Below, piece after piece: positions 29,353-36,093 of a stretch of DNA of 64,000 bases (position 1 is the stretch's first letter; each line of letters starts with the position of its first letter). The stretch spans positions 1,488-65,487 of the forward strand of contig QPIN01000058.1 of assembly GCA_003666385.1 (NCBI GenBank), read 5' to 3'. Source of the stretch: Methylococcales symbiont of Hymedesmia sp. n. MRB-2018 (GTDB lineage Bacteria > Pseudomonadota > Gammaproteobacteria > Methylococcales > Methylomonadaceae). Position numbers and translations under genes: made by a program. The notes beneath the pieces are model-generated. The model worked only from the letters and a program-made list of their open reading frames with translations. It was not told the origin of the DNA and searched no databases.

Positions 29353-29430
29353 ATAAAAGCATATACCCATTTGACCGAAGCACAAAGACACCCTATTTAT
29401 CTTGGGTTGAATTCGCCTTTACTTATTGCG
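29353..29430 (+). pseudogene. IS30-family transposase N-terminal remnant in the opposite orientation, with its start codon decayed to ATA
   Basis: AAGGAG-tgaaaa-ATA AAA GCA TAT ACC CAT TTG ACC GAA GCA CAA AGA... gives (M)KAYTHLTEAQRHPIYLGL, the IS30 N-terminal pattern. It overlaps the 3' end of the TPR lipoprotein gene. Confidence 0.5.
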
Positions 29431-30312
29431 CGTTAGCTTACTATTATTTTTCACTTCATCTAAAATATTGGCAATTCGTTTAAGCTTCCAATCATTTTTT
29501 AGATATTCATACACAAGTTGAGAGCGGAGAAAATACTCTTGTGCCTTATTCCATTGTTGCTTAGATCTGTAATATTGACCTAATTCAAATAAAGTTCCAG
29601 CAATACCCACTCGTGATATTTGTTCTTTATATAAAAAAAGTGCTTGCTGCATTTTTAATTCAGCTTCATCTTCAACGCCTTGCTGTAATAACAAACGCGC
29701 TTGAAAACGCAATAAACGAGCGTTTCCATCCATATTTTTATTGGTCATTTTTTTCAGGGCATGTGCATATCGCCGCGTCCACAAAAACGCATTTTGATTA
29801 TTCAAAAAAGCAATTTTAGTTTGATTGGCAATAGCCGCTAATTGAATCTCATTCGGCTTTGACATCACTTGTTTACCGATAAACTCAGGTAATATTTTTT
29901 GTAATAACTGTTCAGCCTCTATCAACTCATGTTTTTGTAATGCTATCTCACTAAAAAGTAGTGATATGCGTGAATTATAGCTTTTTAATAAGTCTTTTTT
30001 TGCAAGTGCTTTTGCGGCTAATAAGTACGCCTTGCTTTTGCTGGTCTCTTGCATAGCCAGTGTCACTTCTGCCAAATTAATATAACTTAACAAACTGCCT
30101 TCTTGATTATCTATCCCTTGATAAAGGCGTAAAGCTTTTGTAAAAAGATGTTCTGCTTTATTCCATTCTGCATTATTATAAGCATACACAGCATCATTGT
30201 TGTATTCTTTAATATCAGCAATTACCATGGGTTTTCTGACAGTATTACTACTACAGGCAGCAAGCAATAAACAACTCGGTAGAAAAAATAAAAACAAGCA
30301 AACTCTATTCAT
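29419..30312 (-). CDS. TPR-repeat lipoprotein
   Basis: 297-aa ORF with a lipobox (LLLAAC|SS) and TPR-like repeats throughout. It overlaps the upstream MCE gene by 8 nt. Confidence 0.75.
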   Translation of the reverse strand: MNRVCLFLFFLPSCLLLAACSSNTVRKPMVIADIKEYNNDAVYAYNNAEWNKAEHLFTKALRLYQGIDNQEGSLLSYINLAEVTLAMQETSKSKAYLLAAKALAKKDLLKSYNSRISLLFSEIALQKHELIEAEQLLQKILPEFIGKQVMSKPNEIQLAAIANQTKIAFLNNQNAFLWTRRYAHALKKMTNKNMDGNARLLRFQARLLLQQGVEDEAELKMQQALFLYKEQISRVGIAGTLFELGQYYRSKQQWNKAQEYFLRSQLVYEYLKNDWKLKRIANILDEVKNNSKLTRNK

Positions 30313-31318
30313 GATTTGAATGCGCGGGTATTAAAACGGGTTGTGCTGTTTTATTATTTGACAAGGGCCATGTATTTTGAACACTATCGAGCAAATTATC
30401 TGTTTTAGCCAATGCACGTTTTATCTCTATCGTTGTTCCTGGTATTTCCTTTAATTCACTATTAACCAAGGTTAAGGCTTTATTTGCCTGAGCAATTATT
30501 TCATGTAGTTCTTTTACTAGGTCTGGAATACTTGTTGAAGCATTTCGCATATCATTAACAAAATAAGTTGCATCATTTACAATAGGTTCTATCTGAACCA
30601 GTCTTTGTTTTGCGACAGCTATAATACCCTCTGCTTCACTCAATATTTTAGCCCCCGATTCTACAACTACTTTTAAATCTTCTTCCACTTTCTGGTCAAA
30701 AACGGCTGCGCCTATGGTGCCGCGTCCACTTGCAATTTTCTCAATGATTGCATGAACATTGCCCAAAGTTTGTTCTAATTTTGGCAAAAGAGTATCAACT
30801 TTTCCTAATAGTTTTTTACTATCCGTTACCTGGATAAGATTAGCAAGACTGAGCAACAAGTCATTTAGAGATGCTGTTTCATTAACAGGAATGGTTGCTC
30901 CCTCTGCTAGAATGGGTGCGTCAACAGAATCAGACCTTATTTCTATTAATGCATTACCAATACTGGTTAAGCGATTAACAATGGCTCTTGCCCCTTCTCT
31001 AATTAATGTTCGGTGCTTTTGATAAATATCAATAGTCACCTGAATTTTGCCATTCTGATATAAATTCAATTTCGAGACTCTTCCAATCTCTGCCCCTAAT
31101 GTTTTAACAATAGTTCCTTCTCCTAGACCTTCACTGCTATCAACATTCAAATAAAAAGTAACTCGATTTTCAAACAAATGCTGATTTTTTACACTGACAA
31201 CAATAAAAAATAAAAATATTACAAAACCAAAAAATATAAAAAAACCAACGATTCTTTCACGAAAAGTATAGGTGGTCTGATGTATATATTGCTCTTCATT
31301 GTTAAAACCAGTACTCAT
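30305..31318 (-). CDS. MlaD/MCE-domain protein with a long C-terminal helical extension
   Basis: 337-aa ORF with an N-terminal TM anchor, an MCE domain (VTFYLNVDSSEGLGEGTIVKTLGAEIGRVSKL...) and a coiled-coil-like tail of about 190 aa. Confidence 0.82.
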   Translation of the reverse strand: MSTGFNNEEQYIHQTTYTFRERIVGFFIFFGFVIFLFFIVVSVKNQHLFENRVTFYLNVDSSEGLGEGTIVKTLGAEIGRVSKLNLYQNGKIQVTIDIYQKHRTLIREGARAIVNRLTSIGNALIEIRSDSVDAPILAEGATIPVNETASLNDLLLSLANLIQVTDSKKLLGKVDTLLPKLEQTLGNVHAIIEKIASGRGTIGAAVFDQKVEEDLKVVVESGAKILSEAEGIIAVAKQRLVQIEPIVNDATYFVNDMRNASTSIPDLVKELHEIIAQANKALTLVNSELKEIPGTTIEIKRALAKTDNLLDSVQNTWPLSNNKTAQPVLIPAHSNHE

Positions 31319-31333
31319 AAAACTATTCTCTCC

Positions 31334-32083
31334 TTATAAAATACTTACTAATTCCTGCACGATAGCATCTTCTGACTGAAGAAAAGATTTCCAGCCATTA
31401 AAATTAATCATTTTATGTTCTGCAATAAAAATAATCTGATCTGCATGGTTTTCTATAAAATGGGGATATTGAAGTCCGCCAATCATGCACACCGCTCTAT
31501 TGCGTTTATAATCACCCAATAATTCCCACATTCTTTCACGTTCTTTCGCGCCTAGATTATTTAGGGGCACTTCTAGTATCAGTAATGCAGGGTCAAGAAT
31601 CAAGGCACGTGCCAACGCAAGCTGTGCCTGTTGAAAGCTATCCAGTTGAGAAGGAAGTGCAGTAAACTCAAACTGGCAATTCATTTCAGTGAGTAATTTT
31701 TTTGCTTTATCAATGATTTCTTCAAATGGTTTGTGGGTATGATAAAGTGCAGGCAACATGACGTTCATTAACCCATGTAGTGCAGAATGTAGAGGTGCAT
31801 TGCCAGAAAAATAGCCTATTCGACAACGAAATTTCCTCCATTGCAGCTCATTCAATTCAGCTACTTCTTGCCCAAATATTGTTACCTTACCTGAAATGGG
31901 TCTTGAAATTCCTGCCAACATCCATAAATAGGCTCTTAATTGTGGACGAGAAAAGCCAACCAAACAAGATAACTGGGAAGCAGATAACACACAATCTAAA
32001 GCTGGAAACGATAATGAACTTCCTTTTGCACTAGGAATTGCCTCGCTGGACACAACGGTTTCTATACTCGACACTTCTGTCAT
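31334..32083 (-). CDS. MlaF-like ABC ATPase homologue with degenerate catalytic motifs (predicted pseudo-ATPase)
   Basis: 249-aa ORF that is collinear with MlaF. Walker A is GFSRPQLR instead of GxSGxGKT/S. The signature is LDSFQ instead of LSGGQ/M. Walker B is LLILEVP instead of hhhhDEP. No H-loop His is present. It overlaps mlaE by 4 nt. Confidence 0.7.
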   Translation of the reverse strand: MTEVSSIETVVSSEAIPSAKGSSLSFPALDCVLSASQLSCLVGFSRPQLRAYLWMLAGISRPISGKVTIFGQEVAELNELQWRKFRCRIGYFSGNAPLHSALHGLMNVMLPALYHTHKPFEEIIDKAKKLLTEMNCQFEFTALPSQLDSFQQAQLALARALILDPALLILEVPLNNLGAKERERMWELLGDYKRNRAVCMIGGLQYPHFIENHADQIIFIAEHKMINFNGWKSFLQSEDAIVQELVSIL

Positions 32084-32862
32084 AATGAAAATACTATAAA
32101 ATAGCCATCAACTATAAGTAGACAAACCAAACATCTGACCACTGCTTTTTGCATCTGCTCTGAAACTAATGTCGAAGACTTTCCCACTAAAAGTCCATGA
32201 AAGCATGCAATAGTTCCAATGATCAATCCAAAAACTACATTTTTCACAAAAAACCTTAAAACGCCATTAAAACTTATCATGCCCAATAATTCTGTTAATG
32301 ATTTTTGTGCGGAAAAATCATAAAGAAAAGCACTAAAAAAAACGCTACAAATAATCATTACGGCTGTAAAGTAAAATGCTAAACAAATTTGACTAACAAC
32401 CATACTGAGTATTCTCGGAACAACAAAATAATCATCTACATTGATTCCCATGTATTCCAAGGGTTCTATTTCCCCTCCCGCTCGTGTAGTACCTAAATCA
32501 ACGACAATCGCAGAACATGAACGCCCAACCAGAATAAACCCAGTAGTCAATGGTCCCATTTCGCTAAGAACTAGACGTGCCAGAATCTCAATAAGATCAT
32601 TATTCCCTGTCAATGACTGAATAATATAAATTAATTGTGAAGTTACCCCTATTCCTACAAAAAAAGCCAATAACGAAATAATAGCAATTGCATTAATGCC
32701 TATTAAAATAAGCTGTTCTAACACGATAAAATACACAGCACGATTCAAAACATTACGATGAGGTTGCCAAACAGCCAATGTTTGAGTCAAGAAGCAGGTC
32801 AAATCAATCATATAAAAAACAAGGCTTATACAGTGCCTACCTAACCACGCAAAAAAATTCAT
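32080..32862 (-). CDS. MlaE-like ABC transporter permease
   Basis: 260-aa polytopic ORF. Its size, position and pattern are typical of MlaE/YrbE permeases. Confidence 0.8.
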   Translation of the reverse strand: MNFFAWLGRHCISLVFYMIDLTCFLTQTLAVWQPHRNVLNRAVYFIVLEQLILIGINAIAIISLLAFFVGIGVTSQLIYIIQSLTGNNDLIEILARLVLSEMGPLTTGFILVGRSCSAIVVDLGTTRAGGEIEPLEYMGINVDDYFVVPRILSMVVSQICLAFYFTAVMIICSVFFSAFLYDFSAQKSLTELLGMISFNGVLRFFVKNVVFGLIIGTIACFHGLLVGKSSTLVSEQMQKAVVRCLVCLLIVDGYFIVFSL

Positions 32863-32912
32863 TGTCTGATCTCTGGTTCAGAATATATTAAACTGGCATC
32901 GTGAAAAACATA

Positions 32913-34952
32913 TTATCCTATTAACACTGGAATAATAGATACTAATAACAATGTACTTCCCATTGTCACCATAGGCAATAATATTTTTTCATGTCGATAC
33001 CAAAAATTGCCACCTTCCAGAGCCGCTTTTGCAGCCTCTTCATACCCTATCATTTGCCGAGTCAATAAATGGTTAAGAGCGACAGGCGGGGTCAAATATC
33101 CTAATTCAAAAGAAACTAGGGCAATCATCCAAAAGTGTACGGGATTAATACCATTAGTATAGGCAATTTGAGCAAGTGTACCTGTGACCAGTACAACGGC
33201 ACCAAATGGATCCATAATCATACCTATACCCACTAAAACAACAACTAGAAAACTTAATGTTAACCAGACAGATGAAAATGTATTAGGAATGTCATTTAAC
33301 AATCCCGAACGCTCAATGACACCTCCCATCACAAAAGAAAGAGCCATCAGCATTAATAAAGCACCAATATGGACACTGGCCTCAGATGAGGCCATTCTTA
33401 TGCTATGTTCAAAAATCAGGCTTTTTCTTTCTGCTTTGTTTTTCTGTATTGCCGAATGAATACACGACTCATAAACTATTAAACATAAAATAATAATCGG
33501 CAATATAATCGGTGCAGAAAATTCATCCATAGACACCTTTAAACAATAGTCATAAGCAAAAACTATCAAAAACACAATAGAGATATAAGGTAACAATGGA
33601 AGCAATGCCTGTATAAAAGGTTTAAAAGCCTCTTTGACTGATGCTACTCGTATCTTTTCGCATTTAGTCAACAATACAAAAAAAAGAAAAACGACAATAG
33701 TGGTCATAAAAGTTTTCAAGCCCCAGTCAAAAAGCTGGTCAGTCACCACTTCTTTATTCAATGCCGCTATCAATACAACCAATAGGCAAGGTCGTAATAC
33801 CACACCCGCACTACCTGTCATTGCAGTGGCAGCTAATGCCATTTGTCGCCTAGCACCAGCATTAATCAATTGCTCATAAACAATGCTTCCCATGGCAATA
33901 ATAATAATACCTGATGCACCTGTATACGCTGTGGGTAATGCCATGACAATAATGGCCACAACAGCTAATAACTCAGGCGATAGTCGCCAAGGTATAAAGA
34001 CATTGAACACCAATTCACCTAATTGGGTTCGTTTCAACAACATACCCACCCAAATATACAAGCCTATATTAAGAAACAATCCTGCCTGATCAATCAATAA
34101 GCTAAAAAATATGGCTAAGCCTGCCCAATGCTCTTCCATTAGGAAAAAATAATTTGCAGCAAAGCCAGCCATAAAAACATAAAGGGGAATAGACAGCAAT
34201 GCATGATAAAAACTGCCCTCTTGTTTAAACTGCTTTTTCGGATTAAATAACTGGTATAGATTAATGATGACTAATGACGAAAACCCAACAATTAATAATA
34301 AATAGACTTCTGCGTGTTCAATGATTGTGGCAGATTGGTAAATACTTTTGCTATAAAACCAGGCTGATAATAATAAACAACCATTGGCAAAACATTGTGC
34401 CAGTGTAGAAACAAGATGATCATAAGTTGTAATAACAGGCTTAAAAGCAATATGCTGTTGCTTCACCGTGCATGTTATTGCACAAATAAATAGCATTAAC
34501 AGTAAAATCATACGTTGCATTTTAAATGCATACACACTAAAAAAAGCAGTGCTGGTTTCCAATGTACGAAAAATAATTACTGGTGTTGTGATTCTGCGCT
34601 GATTTTGTTTGGCTAGCTTATGCTTGCCACTACAAATTTTCCGATTTTCTTGTAATGATTCCCTGGCCGCATCTTGATCAAAAGGTTCACTTTCAAACAG
34701 GGCTTCCAATTCATCTTGGTTAGCTGCTTGTGCTTCCAGCTTAGTTAATTGGCTTTCAATATCTGCATTAGGGTTACAAGCAGGTGTAGGAATATCTGCT
34801 CTTAGCAAAAAGTAATCCTGCCAAAAATATTCCCCCAGATGTAATAAACGGGTATGAAATTGCCCAGCATTACCAGCAATAACGACAGCCAATAAGAGAA
34901 TAAAAACAGGCAATGAGGAAGCCCATTCTTGCAAACTTCTAATCCTTAGCAT
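32913..34952 (-). CDS. TRAP-type transporter fused (DctQ-like + DctM-like) large permease with an N-terminal coiled-coil insert
   Basis: 679-aa ORF. DctM-type blocks are LPTAYTGASGIIIIAMGSIVYE, TGSAGVVLRP and GMIMDPFGAVVLVTGTLAQIAY..GINPVHFWMIALVSFELGYLTPPVALN. Confidence 0.75.
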   Translation of the reverse strand: MLRIRSLQEWASSLPVFILLLAVVIAGNAGQFHTRLLHLGEYFWQDYFLLRADIPTPACNPNADIESQLTKLEAQAANQDELEALFESEPFDQDAARESLQENRKICSGKHKLAKQNQRRITTPVIIFRTLETSTAFFSVYAFKMQRMILLLMLFICAITCTVKQQHIAFKPVITTYDHLVSTLAQCFANGCLLLSAWFYSKSIYQSATIIEHAEVYLLLIVGFSSLVIINLYQLFNPKKQFKQEGSFYHALLSIPLYVFMAGFAANYFFLMEEHWAGLAIFFSLLIDQAGLFLNIGLYIWVGMLLKRTQLGELVFNVFIPWRLSPELLAVVAIIVMALPTAYTGASGIIIIAMGSIVYEQLINAGARRQMALAATAMTGSAGVVLRPCLLVVLIAALNKEVVTDQLFDWGLKTFMTTIVVFLFFVLLTKCEKIRVASVKEAFKPFIQALLPLLPYISIVFLIVFAYDYCLKVSMDEFSAPIILPIIILCLIVYESCIHSAIQKNKAERKSLIFEHSIRMASSEASVHIGALLMLMALSFVMGGVIERSGLLNDIPNTFSSVWLTLSFLVVVLVGIGMIMDPFGAVVLVTGTLAQIAYTNGINPVHFWMIALVSFELGYLTPPVALNHLLTRQMIGYEEAAKAALEGGNFWYRHEKILLPMVTMGSTLLLVSIIPVLIG

Positions 34953-35079: not shown

Positions 35080-36093
35080 TTATTCTTTATCTGTAGCCGT
35101 ACATTCAGACTGCTGTGGCTCTTTTTTGCATCTCAGCATTCGCATCAATTTCAGCATTTTTCCATTATAAATACCTTCATCTCTTAAACGCATTCTTGAT
35201 TGCCTAAAAACCTCTCGGTAATCTGGTTTATCAGATTCAGGAATAGCAACCCAGTACTTTTCTGGAATAGTACTTTCATATTTTTTGACCGATTCCATGC
35301 CTACATCAAACCTGCTTAAAACATATTCTCGTGACTGTTGCCCATAATTTTCTGGAAACTCTGTTTTACGAATCAACATTTGCATAGTCAATTGTGCTAA
35401 AGAAAAATCAATAACACCGCCATTTGGCTCAAGCCCTTTATATAATTCCATTGCTTCATACACAATGGCAGGACCAAAAGCTACATCAACAGAACCATTA
35501 TTAAATTTACTATACATAGTTGCAATTGAACTGCCTACTGCCGAGCCACCAATAAAAGACACCATCTCCTGTTGTGCAGGGTCAGAATCCAAAATAGCAA
35601 TTCGTTTACCTGCTAATTCACCCACCGTGTCTATGCTGCGATCATTAACAAACATATAAGCCGTGCCTGCCGGACTAATCCCTACCACCTCATAAGGATC
35701 ACTCAGCATTAATTTTGCAGCTTTTTTTGAGCTCACAGTAGTTATCACCGATTTTAAATGTTGGTATGTTGGTAAAGCGCCAATCGCATCCAAACTGCCG
35801 CTAAATGAATTAAATTGTCTGGCTCTAATGCCCGTAAAAATCACCGCATCACACAAAGCTGATTTAAAATCTTCTGCTGCTACACGCTCATTAGTATAGG
35901 GTTTCAGCTCTAGCTCTACACCCCAATTTAATGCCGCTATTTTATAGTCTTTCATATAGGAAAAAACAGGGCCGTTTGCACCCAACAGGTCAAACACACA
36001 CATTTTTTTAGCTACCGCTAAAGCCGTATGACTTGATAGCATTAACAGTAGAGCTGTAAATAGCTTTGTTACTAATCTCTTATATCTATTCAT
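35080..36093 (-). CDS. Periplasmic solute-binding protein (TRAP-associated type; family tentative)
   Basis: 337-aa ORF with a signal peptide (LLLMLSSHTALA|VA). Its size and alternating pattern resemble periplasmic binding proteins, and it lies directly upstream of the TRAP permease. Confidence 0.55.
   Translation of the reverse strand: MNRYKRLVTKLFTALLLMLSSHTALAVAKKMCVFDLLGANGPVFSYMKDYKIAALNWGVELELKPYTNERVAAEDFKSALCDAVIFTGIRARQFNSFSGSLDAIGALPTYQHLKSVITTVSSKKAAKLMLSDPYEVVGISPAGTAYMFVNDRSIDTVGELAGKRIAILDSDPAQQEMVSFIGGSAVGSSIATMYSKFNNGSVDVAFGPAIVYEAMELYKGLEPNGGVIDFSLAQLTMQMLIRKTEFPENYGQQSREYVLSRFDVGMESVKKYESTIPEKYWVAIPESDKPDYREVFRQSRMRLRDEGIYNGKMLKLMRMLRCKKEPQQSECTATDKE

Follow-up and report, generated by a model that had tools for sequence, protein, structure and literature searches.

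A 64-kb window of the genome of the Methylococcales symbiont of Hymedesmia sp. n. MRB-2018 (contig QPIN01000058.1; "the window" is this whole stretch of 64,000 nucleotides) encodes a protein that resembles the nucleotide-binding domain (NBD) of ABC transporters, with its catalytic motifs replaced. The gene lies between those for an MlaE-family permease and a long MlaD/MCE protein, and belongs to a four-gene module that is completed by a TPR lipoprotein. On balance, we lean towards giving the NBD-like protein a structural or regulatory role, and not a catalytic one, in this distinct module, which would itself probably act as a passive MCE conduit. It is read in this way because it is under selection, is coupled to MlaE and has a conserved docking surface, while its ATP site has been dismantled. 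The host is a methane-oxidising symbiont of sponges (PMC6474228).

Replacement of the catalytic motifs

The gene and the segments that stand in the place of the ABC motifs are located as follows.

31334..32083, minus strand: NBD-like protein, 249 aa, ATG start; Pfam ABC_tran 28.1 bits; catalytic motifs replaced
31931..31957, minus strand: Walker A-equivalent GFSRPQLRA, residues 43-51; re-translated; family consensus G-P-H-R-x-Q-L-R-A
31739..31804, minus strand: Q-loop position (G94 for Gln) and post-Q-loop helical segment PL.S....NV.LPALYH (residues 97-115); re-translated
31631..31645, minus strand: ABC-signature-equivalent LDSFQ, residues 147-151; family consensus L-N-S-F-Q
31565..31585, minus strand: Walker B-equivalent LLILEVP, residues 167-173; Glu171, Val172
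31466..31489, minus strand: H-loop-equivalent segment CMIGGLQY, residues 199-206; Gln205 in the place of the switch His

Where E. coli MlaF has the Walker A sequence GPSGIGKTT, which conforms to the pattern G-x(4)-G-K-[ST], the NBD-like protein has GFSRPQLRA, in which Lys is replaced by Leu49 and Thr by Arg50. The Q-loop Gln has become Gly94 and the switch His of the H-loop has become Gln205, both of which are invariant in the strict family of close homologues described below. LDSFQ aligns with the LSGGM of E. coli MlaF and departs from the LSGGQ consensus, while LEVPL takes the place of FDEPF, so that the Walker B Asp is replaced by Glu171 and the catalytic Glu by Val172.

The register of these comparisons was checked in four ways: by phmmer alignments to NBDs in the PDB, for example YtrE and LolD; by hmmalign with E. 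coli MlaF and LptB; by hhalign of a profile of the wider clade against E. coli MlaF, LolD and LptB; and by an ungapped count, which puts the H-loop position 34 residues beyond Walker B, at Q205. One MAFFT run with MlaF and LptB placed H213 at the H-loop instead, but this needs an 8-residue gap and is unsupported by the hmmalign, hhalign and ungapped registers; residue 213 is Tyr in 31 of 120 orthologues.

A preliminary description of this DNA had listed a Walker A reading GFSRPQLR without GK[ST], LDSFQ instead of LSGGQ/M, a Walker B (LLILEVP) that had lost its Asp-Glu pair, and no evident H-loop His, whilst allowing that the motifs might have been mis-registered by eye. Proper alignments show every motif altered: re-translation of the DNA agrees with the four-way register for Walker A and with the alignments for the signature, and Gln205 occupies the H-loop position by both profile and ungapped registers. 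The statement about Walker B is correct for this protein, but not for its family, as the Asp is present in 118 of the 120 orthologues and Glu is restricted to the Hymedesmia symbiont and one other sequence. Glu171 is thus lineage-specific and not a family loss of the Walker B Asp. At the level of motifs, the alignments and the conservation among orthologues support the designation of the protein as a predicted pseudo-ATPase.

In MlaF, the K47R substitution abolishes ATPase activity and complementation (PMC5016091), and in MceG the Walker B substitutions D188N and E189Q lead to loss of transport (PMC9947336). Because these variants are inactive, the NBD-like protein is presumed neither to bind nor to hydrolyse ATP. 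With the P-loop Lys and Thr, the Q-loop Gln, LSGGQ, the catalytic Glu and the switch His all gone, the canonical ATP-sandwich power stroke would therefore be impossible.

Conservation and selection in the strict family

A hypothetical protein already in the databases, from the 'Methylococcales symbiont of Hymedesmia sp. n. MRB-2018', matches the NBD-like protein at 100% identity. A search over 5.8 billion proteins gave at least 120 homologues among the matches listed (243-259 aa, 53-67% identity), almost all of them from marine Methylococcales, and these 120 make up the homologue set used here. The identical deposited protein, together with these full-length homologues, indicates that the gene is not a chance open reading frame (ORF). 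By a scan of GTDB species genomes with the strict-family alignment, the family is present in 31 species-level genomes, including those of Methylomarinum, Methyloprofundus, 'Methylomonas' metagenome-assembled genomes and symbionts of Bathymodiolus and Iophon.

The altered motifs are themselves conserved across the family, as G-P-H-R-x-Q-L-R-A, G94, L-N-S-F-Q, LLFLD-V and CMIGGLQY. In the Walker A-equivalent segment, R46 and R50 are each found in 119/120 sequences and Q48 in 117/120. Against 1.04-1.18 bits for the whole protein, the Walker A equivalent has an entropy of 0.72 bits, the signature equivalent one of 0.70 and the H-loop equivalent, which is the best conserved of these motif segments, one of 0.23.

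Ratios of non-synonymous to synonymous substitution (dN/dS) were estimated by the Nei-Gojobori method (NG86) for unsaturated pairs, dS being saturated in many others. Values for the NBD-like gene lie between 0.06 and 0.25 (0.15-0.20 at dS 0.09-0.5, and 0.06-0.08 at dS ~1.2-1.4), those for its partners being 0.02-0.15 for MlaE, 0.05-0.18 for MlaD and 0.14-0.54 for the TPR protein. The NBD-like gene has thereby been shown to be under purifying selection, at a level similar to that of MlaD.

The Hymedesmia copy departs from the family at five of the 75 columns with at least 95% conservation (P44F, D171E, F174L, L210I and S221A), where family members show a median of one departure and a maximum of seven. 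Its mean identity to the family is 57%, compared with 58-66% for most members. Because of the departures at conserved columns, the gene is suggested to be evolving mildly faster in this symbiont, without decay. The preliminary description had held that the gene is intact and does not look like a decaying pseudogene, and this view is sustained by the full-length ORF, the conservation of the altered motifs and the dN/dS values. The orthologue alignment and dN/dS analysis that it had proposed as a check show the degenerate motifs to be kept under purifying selection in Methylococcales, and relaxed selection or pseudogene status is ruled out on the same grounds.

The four-gene module

The partners of the NBD-like gene in the window are listed below.

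32080..32862, minus strand: MlaE-family permease, 260 aa; Pfam MlaE 150.8 bits; tblastn match with the E. coli MlaE query
30305..31318, minus strand: long MlaD/MCE protein, 337 aa; Pfam MlaD 45.6 bits, residues 53-128
29419..30312, minus strand: TPR lipoprotein, 297 aa; Pfam TPR_12; lipobox LAAC, Cys20, +2 Ser

In all Methylococcales loci with enough sequence the genes follow the order MlaE, NBD-like protein, MlaD (333-345 aa) and TPR protein. MlaE is directly upstream in every context, making the NBD-like gene the fixed second gene. Starts and stops within the module overlap or abut; in the window, the MlaE stop and the NBD-like start share 4 nt (ATGA) and the MlaD stop and TPR start share 8 nt. 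The first of these overlaps, and the 249-aa length of the ORF, had been given correctly in the preliminary description.

MlaE is without a STAS domain, as judged by Pfam. MlaD has an N-terminal transmembrane helix, followed by a single MCE domain and then by ~165 C-terminal residues that are predicted to be helical. In a single-sequence AlphaFold2 model, which is of low confidence overall (mean pLDDT 52), residues 151-316 form helices at pLDDT ~50-78, and matches of the orthologues to Pfam Helical_needle are faint or weak. These helices are probably a needle that spans the periplasm. All but one of the TPR orthologues, and five of five TPR partners in the distant clade, carry a lipobox, and by the +2 rule the TPR lipoprotein is the predicted outer-membrane partner of the module.

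A tblastn search of the window with E. coli MlaF, LptB, MlaD, MlaC and MlaB found no other ABC NBD, MlaC or MlaB, and only the MlaE ORF was matched with E. coli queries; such queries miss even the NBD-like protein and the long MlaD, which are too divergent. No canonical ABC NBD lies within the operon in any locus (flanks of 8-10 kb). A scan of the locus for promoters and terminators gave nothing above shuffled expectation.

Fold and ancestry

An AlphaFold2 model of the NBD-like protein, built with 61 family sequences, has the ABC NBD fold (mean pLDDT 89, pTM 0.86). Its best Foldseek match is MlaF in the cryo-EM structure of E. coli MlaFEDB (6xbd_I), with a query-normalised TM-score of 0.89 and a root-mean-square deviation of 2.1 Å; MetN, ArtP, MceG (TM-score 0.86), MacB, YbbA and LolD are close behind. 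In all, 1202 NBDs in the PDB match at E <= 1e-3, the top TM-scores being 0.86-0.89. In the model, strand 38-43 is followed by two loop residues and then by helix 46-56, which starts at R46. Because only two loop residues lie between strand and helix, the phosphate-binding loop is predicted to be shortened, beyond mere mutation.

Membership of the ABC NBD superfamily (PF00005) is indicated by this fold and by a Pfam ABC_tran score just above the gathering cut-off (28.1 bits against a cut-off of 25), compared with 106.9 bits for E. coli MlaF and 124.9 for LptB. Closer placement is less clear. The best NCBIfam matches are LolD, YbbA, DevA and FtsE at 55-65 bits, with MlaF outside the top 25, and phmmer against the PDB gives YtrE and LolD 56-65 bits compared with 36-42 for MlaF. 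In hhalign, the clade profile scores 190.9 with MlaF and 191.9 with LolD, the MlaF alignment running end-to-end over 232 columns. Between MlaF and LolD ancestry, the family, PDB and profile comparisons are thus mixed, and the structural TM-score favours MlaF. The protein ends ~20 residues before the MlaF C-terminus and is without the C-terminal 'handshake' extension of MlaF.

Like mlaF, the gene is encoded with an MlaE and an MCE protein. In other respects the locus departs from Mla: no MlaC match was found in the window, MlaD has 337 aa where the Mla protein is short (~180 aa), and the order is E-F-D-TPR and not F-E-D-C-B. Because of this E-F-D order, the lack of MlaB/STAS, MlaC and the C-terminal extension, and scores that do not favour MlaF over LolD-type proteins, the NBD-like protein is not demonstrably an MlaF orthologue, nor part of the Mla system proper. 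It had been described beforehand as the MlaF-like cognate NBD of the adjacent mlaE and mlaD; cognate it is, by a gene order conserved down to ~25-35% identity, but orthology to MlaF is not demonstrable. Database names for these genes are generic ('ATP-binding cassette domain-containing protein', 'MlaF').

A wider clade of degenerate NBDs

A search with the family profile over 1.84 billion representative proteins recovered the strict family as one full-length representative (370 bits), below which lies a continuum of NBD-like proteins of ~250 aa scoring from 220 down to 100 bits. Motifs were scored, at five residues with the Walker B Asp set aside, in 69 single-domain representatives with E <= 1e-30. 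None of the 69 has a canonical ABC signature; the Q-loop Gln is retained in 4, GK[ST] in 20, the catalytic Glu in 24 and the H-loop His in 20, while 30 retain none of the five. A profile made from distant members gives the clade at least 227 bits and ordinary ABC ATPases at most 153 bits, and the clade is discrete from them.

Conservation across the broad clade is the inverse of that in a working ATPase. The Walker A (2.78 bits), signature (2.52) and D-loop (3.04) positions have entropies above the protein average of 2.47 bits, whereas residues 97-115, following the Q-loop, form the most conserved segment (1.41 bits). Among 76 distant members, N107, Y114 and H115 do not vary; R159 and P165 are invariant in the clade as well. 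From general ABC-transporter structures, the post-Q-loop segment presumably lines the groove that receives the coupling helix of the permease, and residues 97-115 are accordingly the predicted docking groove for MlaE. The DNVAYPLREH of E. coli MlaF corresponds here to MNVMLPALYH. Immediately after the Q-loop position, the clade has the hallmark sequence N-[VIL]-x-[LMF]-P-A-x-Y-H, which could be used as a search signature for the family.

Six genomic contexts of relatives with 25-35% identity were available, and five of them, including that of Aliidiomarina taiwanensis, carry MlaE, the NBD-like protein, an MlaD of 303-343 aa and a TPR protein in this order, with neighbouring genes again overlapping or abutting. 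At the sixth locus (L057, 5169-7547), MlaE and the NBD-like gene are followed by Mrr in the place of MlaD and TPR, and genes of GmrSD and AAA_15 type lie upstream; this operon appears to have been broken up by a defence island. The clade has been seen in Gammaproteobacteria, its distant taxonomy resting on few named proteins.

Four clade members (P0188, P0296, P0272 and P0279) have GK[ST] together with the Walker B Asp but no catalytic Glu, Q-loop Gln or signature; all but one of them also keep the H-loop His. They may be nucleotide binders without hydrolysis. Because part of the motif set is kept in these four, motif loss across the clade is taken to have been stepwise.

Comparison with known systems

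The closest described architecture is that of MpcEFDA of Brucella abortus, an Mla-Pqi chimeric complex with a needle-type MpcD of 331 aa (PMC12436622). Both systems are encoded by four genes in the order permease, NBD, MCE protein and lipoprotein; the MCE protein has ~330 aa (337 here), one MCE domain and a helical C-terminus proposed to form a needle; and both are without MlaC, MlaA and a separate MlaB (here by ORF list and Pfam). The module thus has the E-F-D-lipoprotein operon and the ~330-aa needle-type MCE protein of Mpc, the needle itself being weakly supported. The differences lie in the parts. MpcF is an MlaF-homologous ABC ATPase of a well-conserved transporter, whereas the NBD-like protein is without catalytic motifs; MpcE has an N-terminal STAS domain, which MlaE here has not; MpcA, an outer-membrane lipoprotein, is PqiC-like, while the TPR lipoprotein has no PqiC-type domain by Pfam; and MpcEFDA is alphaproteobacterial.

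E. coli MlaFEDB shares with the module the NBD fold, an MlaE permease with an MCE partner and a similar post-Q-loop segment. It differs in the catalytic motifs and C-terminal extension of MlaF, in having MlaB, MlaC and MlaA, and in its F-E-D order. The mycobacterial systems Mce1 and Mce4 share an orphan ATPase, MceG, and the NBD is needed for stability of the complex (PMC9947336). They resemble the module in their MlaE-like YrbE permeases, in MCE proteins with a long helical needle and in the NBD fold (8fed; TM-score 0.86). Unlike the NBD-like protein, MceG is an active ATPase of canonical type whose gene lies outside the operons, and Mce1 and Mce4 contain a heterohexamer of six MCE paralogues and no TPR lipoprotein.

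PqiABC, an MCE conduit that has no ATPase, is reported to exchange phospholipids passively and in both directions (bioRxiv 10.64898/2026.09.15.751761). PqiABC and LetAB have an envelope-spanning MCE tunnel, an outer-membrane lipoprotein partner (PqiC) and no dedicated ATPase for transport, features which are predicted for the module. Their inner-membrane components, however, are PqiA and LetA and not an ABC-type MlaE with a dead NBD, they have three or seven MCE domains where the module has one, and their lipoprotein is PqiC-like in contrast to the TPR protein. In CFTR, SUR and transporters such as PatAB and TM287-288, selection likewise keeps non-consensus Walker, signature or H-loop residues, and the degenerate site regulates and does not power. 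These transporters always keep one consensus hydrolytic site, whereas here there is a single NBD gene with a single permease gene, so that in a 2:2 complex, as is expected, the two composite sites would both be degenerate.

Full-text literature searches turned up no account of a degenerate NBD combined with a TPR lipoprotein in an MCE- or Mla-type system, which is not proof of novelty. The module is put forward as a candidate for a widespread, previously undescribed, Mpc-like MCE/ABC system with a predicted pseudo-ATPase.

TRAP-like neighbouring genes

Two further genes precede mlaE in the window.

32913..34952, minus strand: divergent DctM-like (TRAP large-permease-like) membrane protein, 679 aa; Pfam DctM 50.4 bits, residues 292-643
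35080..36093, minus strand: AdeT1_2-family periplasmic solute-binding protein, 337 aa; Pfam AdeT1_2 294.7 bits; partner of the DctM-like protein

By ORF and Pfam annotation, six co-oriented genes thus run from the solute-binding protein through the DctM-like protein, MlaE, the NBD-like protein and MlaD to the TPR protein, with the DctM-like gene 50 nt upstream of mlaE. The solute-binding protein scores 17.9 bits with DctP and 40.5 bits with NCBIfam TRAP_S1, both below cut-off, and matches the DctP structure 4p1e at E = 0.002. The DctM-like protein has a weak PDB match to DctMQ (9pym), and no DctQ part was identified in Pfam, NCBIfam and PDB scans. It has a long charged insert near residues 60-125, and the TRAP-like module is very divergent.

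The pair is linked to the four-gene module in 18 of 23 informative, non-redundant Methylococcales loci. The linkage survives rearrangement: the pair lies 3' of the TPR gene in L035 and L036, is divergent upstream in L038, and is separated by an insert of ~1.7 kb in L026 and L042. It was not found within 8-10 kb in L002 (Methyloprofundus sedimenti), L003, L028, L031 or L040, and no TRAP genes occur at any of the six distant-clade loci (five intact modules and the disrupted L057). L028 and L042 have NBD-like proteins that are 97% identical (dS 0.09), and because the pair lies 1.7 kb upstream in L042 and is not present within 8 kb in L028, the linkage is evolutionarily labile. The preliminary description had suggested the adjacent TRAP module as another energy source; the linkage is real in Methylococcales, but as an energy source the pair is weakly supported, and because it is missing from the wider clade it is not a general one.

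The symbionts of Hymedesmia and Iophon (L006/L013) differ sharply in divergence along this region. Their solute-binding proteins are 97% and their DctM-like proteins 95% identical (dS 0.13-0.17), while directly downstream MlaE is 78% and the NBD-like protein 65% identical (dS ~1.8-2.1), the break falling at the spacer at ~32863-32912. Such a sharp break implies that recombination has replaced one module, with adjacency kept. At L008/L025 (1749-4991), the pair is preceded upstream by a further AdeT1_2 paralogue and by two ORFs of ~315 aa that have no annotation, which suggests an expanded binding-protein cluster.

Possible functions

In the reading favoured here, the NBD-like protein would be a dedicated cytoplasmic partner of the MlaE-type permease, keeping the NBD fold and the permease-docking groove while giving up the ATP site. 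Most likely, it would act at the conduit's base, where it would assemble, stabilise or gate the dimer of MlaE. The long helices of MlaD would form a needle across the periplasm, with the TPR lipoprotein at the outer membrane, and a lipid or other hydrophobic substrate would move down its own gradient through the MCE tunnel, as reported for PqiABC. A gradient-driven conduit of this kind is plausible because PqiABC is reported to exchange phospholipid passively without an ATPase. Complex formation, passive transport and the nature of the substrate are all predictions for this module.

Several points weigh against this interpretation. The predicted lack of ATP binding and hydrolysis has sequence as its only basis, and the proposed needle has a low-confidence model and faint Pfam matches behind it. 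In the wider clade, 12 of the 69 representatives keep Walker A, the Walker B Asp-Glu and the His together and about a third have GK[ST], so that ATP binding or slow hydrolysis may survive in some members. Mce complexes are not stabilised by MceG that carries Walker B mutations (PMC9947336), and a stabilising role for an NBD is therefore not always independent of catalysis. A canonical MlaF may be encoded elsewhere in the genome, the data having covered the 64-kb window and flanks of up to 10 kb. Finally, within the strict family the former ATP-site residues R46, Q48, R50, D171, Q205 and Y206 are strongly conserved, a pattern that re-purposing as a ligand or contact site would explain no less well than a purely structural role.

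Such a site would suit a ligand-sensing regulatory subunit, in which the former ATP site binds a small molecule (an anionic metabolite or second messenger) or an unhydrolysed nucleotide and gates the conduit in the manner of CFTR or SUR. The polar residues R46, Q48, R50, D171 and Q205 are invariant or nearly so and the former motif segments are better conserved than the protein average (0.23-0.72 against 1.04-1.18 bits), while clade members with GK[ST], Asp and His but neither signature nor catalytic Glu would permit binding without hydrolysis. In the broad clade, however, the same positions are among the most variable, so that there is no common ligand site; the predicted P-loop has collapsed into a helix, and the sequence suggests no ligand. 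We regard this explanation as unlikely, if worth serious attention. The Arg, Gln and Asp that the strict family conserves where the active site used to be might also be taken to indicate an unorthodox but active ATPase with non-canonical catalytic residues. That is a very improbable view, given that the predicted model has no P-loop anion hole, that the Mg-coordinating Ser/Thr, the general base and the trans-site signature are all lacking, that the positions are not conserved across the clade, and that single substitutions at them inactivate MlaF and MceG. Least credible of all, to the point of being nearly dismissed, is a decaying or strain-specific mlaF remnant in a genome-reducing symbiont: the deviations of the Hymedesmia copy at conserved columns and its lower mean identity to the family might be so explained, but the substitutions are mostly conservative, the ORF is full-length with no frameshift, dN/dS is low, and the same altered motifs recur in the 120 orthologues and 31 species-level genomes, among them free-living Methyloprofundus and Methylomarinum.

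Two further explanations supply the energy from outside the module. In marine Methylococcales, the solute-binding and DctM-like proteins could form a TRAP-coupled hybrid with it, giving ion-gradient energy or handling the same substrate in series. This would fit the linkage in 18 of the 23 loci, rearranged layouts included, the intergenic gaps down to 10-50 nt, the lack of any terminator-like site between the DctM-like gene and mlaE in the terminator scan, and the adjacency kept across the recombination breakpoint between the two sponge symbionts. Nevertheless, the module occurs without TRAP genes in five Methylococcales loci and all distant loci examined, linkage differs between the near-identical L028 and L042, and neither fusion, co-variation nor interaction supports a hybrid. 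AdeT/DctM-type pairs form an independent transporter family elsewhere, Pfam AdeT1_2 being named after Acinetobacter proteins, and no mechanism is known that would let an elevator of the TRAP type power the MlaE dimer. The hybrid is accordingly rather doubtful. Alternatively, energy could be supplied in trans by a canonical MlaF- or MceG-like ATPase encoded elsewhere, which would replace the NBD-like protein or heterodimerise with it to give one consensus-like or fully active site. Most Gammaproteobacteria have a canonical mla operon, and the docking groove resembles that of MlaF (MNVMLPALYH against DNVAYPLREH). The orphan ATPase shared by Mce1 and Mce4 offers a precedent (PMC9947336). However, translational coupling ties the NBD-like protein 1:1 to one MlaE, which is expected to be a symmetric homodimer, and the selection on it equals that on MlaD. 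In a heterodimer, each composite site would still hold its dead Walker A or dead signature, and no canonical NBD was found in the window by tblastn or in the operon within 8-10 kb at any locus. Supply in trans is thus improbable, a shade more so than the hybrid.

A bolder form of the passive-conduit interpretation would see the clade as an ABC-derived MCE conduit without ATP hydrolysis, intermediate between Mla/Mce/Mpc and Pqi/Let, and functionally coupled in marine methanotrophs to a TRAP-type secondary transporter driven by an ion gradient, the two forming one machine for the uptake or export of a hydrophobic substrate. In this full form it is speculative and rather unlikely.

Implications

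MCE lipid-transport systems are either powered by ABC proteins, as in Mla, Mce, TGD and Mpc, or without an ATPase, as in Pqi and Let. In the clade described here, purifying selection has kept an NBD-shaped subunit with its ABC permease while the catalytic machinery was discarded, and the clade so bears on how lipid trafficking across the envelope acquires its direction and energy. The labels 'ATP-binding cassette domain-containing protein' and 'MlaF' would, if the interpretation is correct, mislead for these genes. The hosts include the culturable Aliidiomarina and Methyloprofundus sedimenti, which leaves the system open to testing. If borne out, it would be an ABC system of a rare sort, with degeneracy expected at both nucleotide sites, and would provide a natural 'ATPase-dead' MlaE complex with which the structural roles of the NBD could be parted from its energetic ones.

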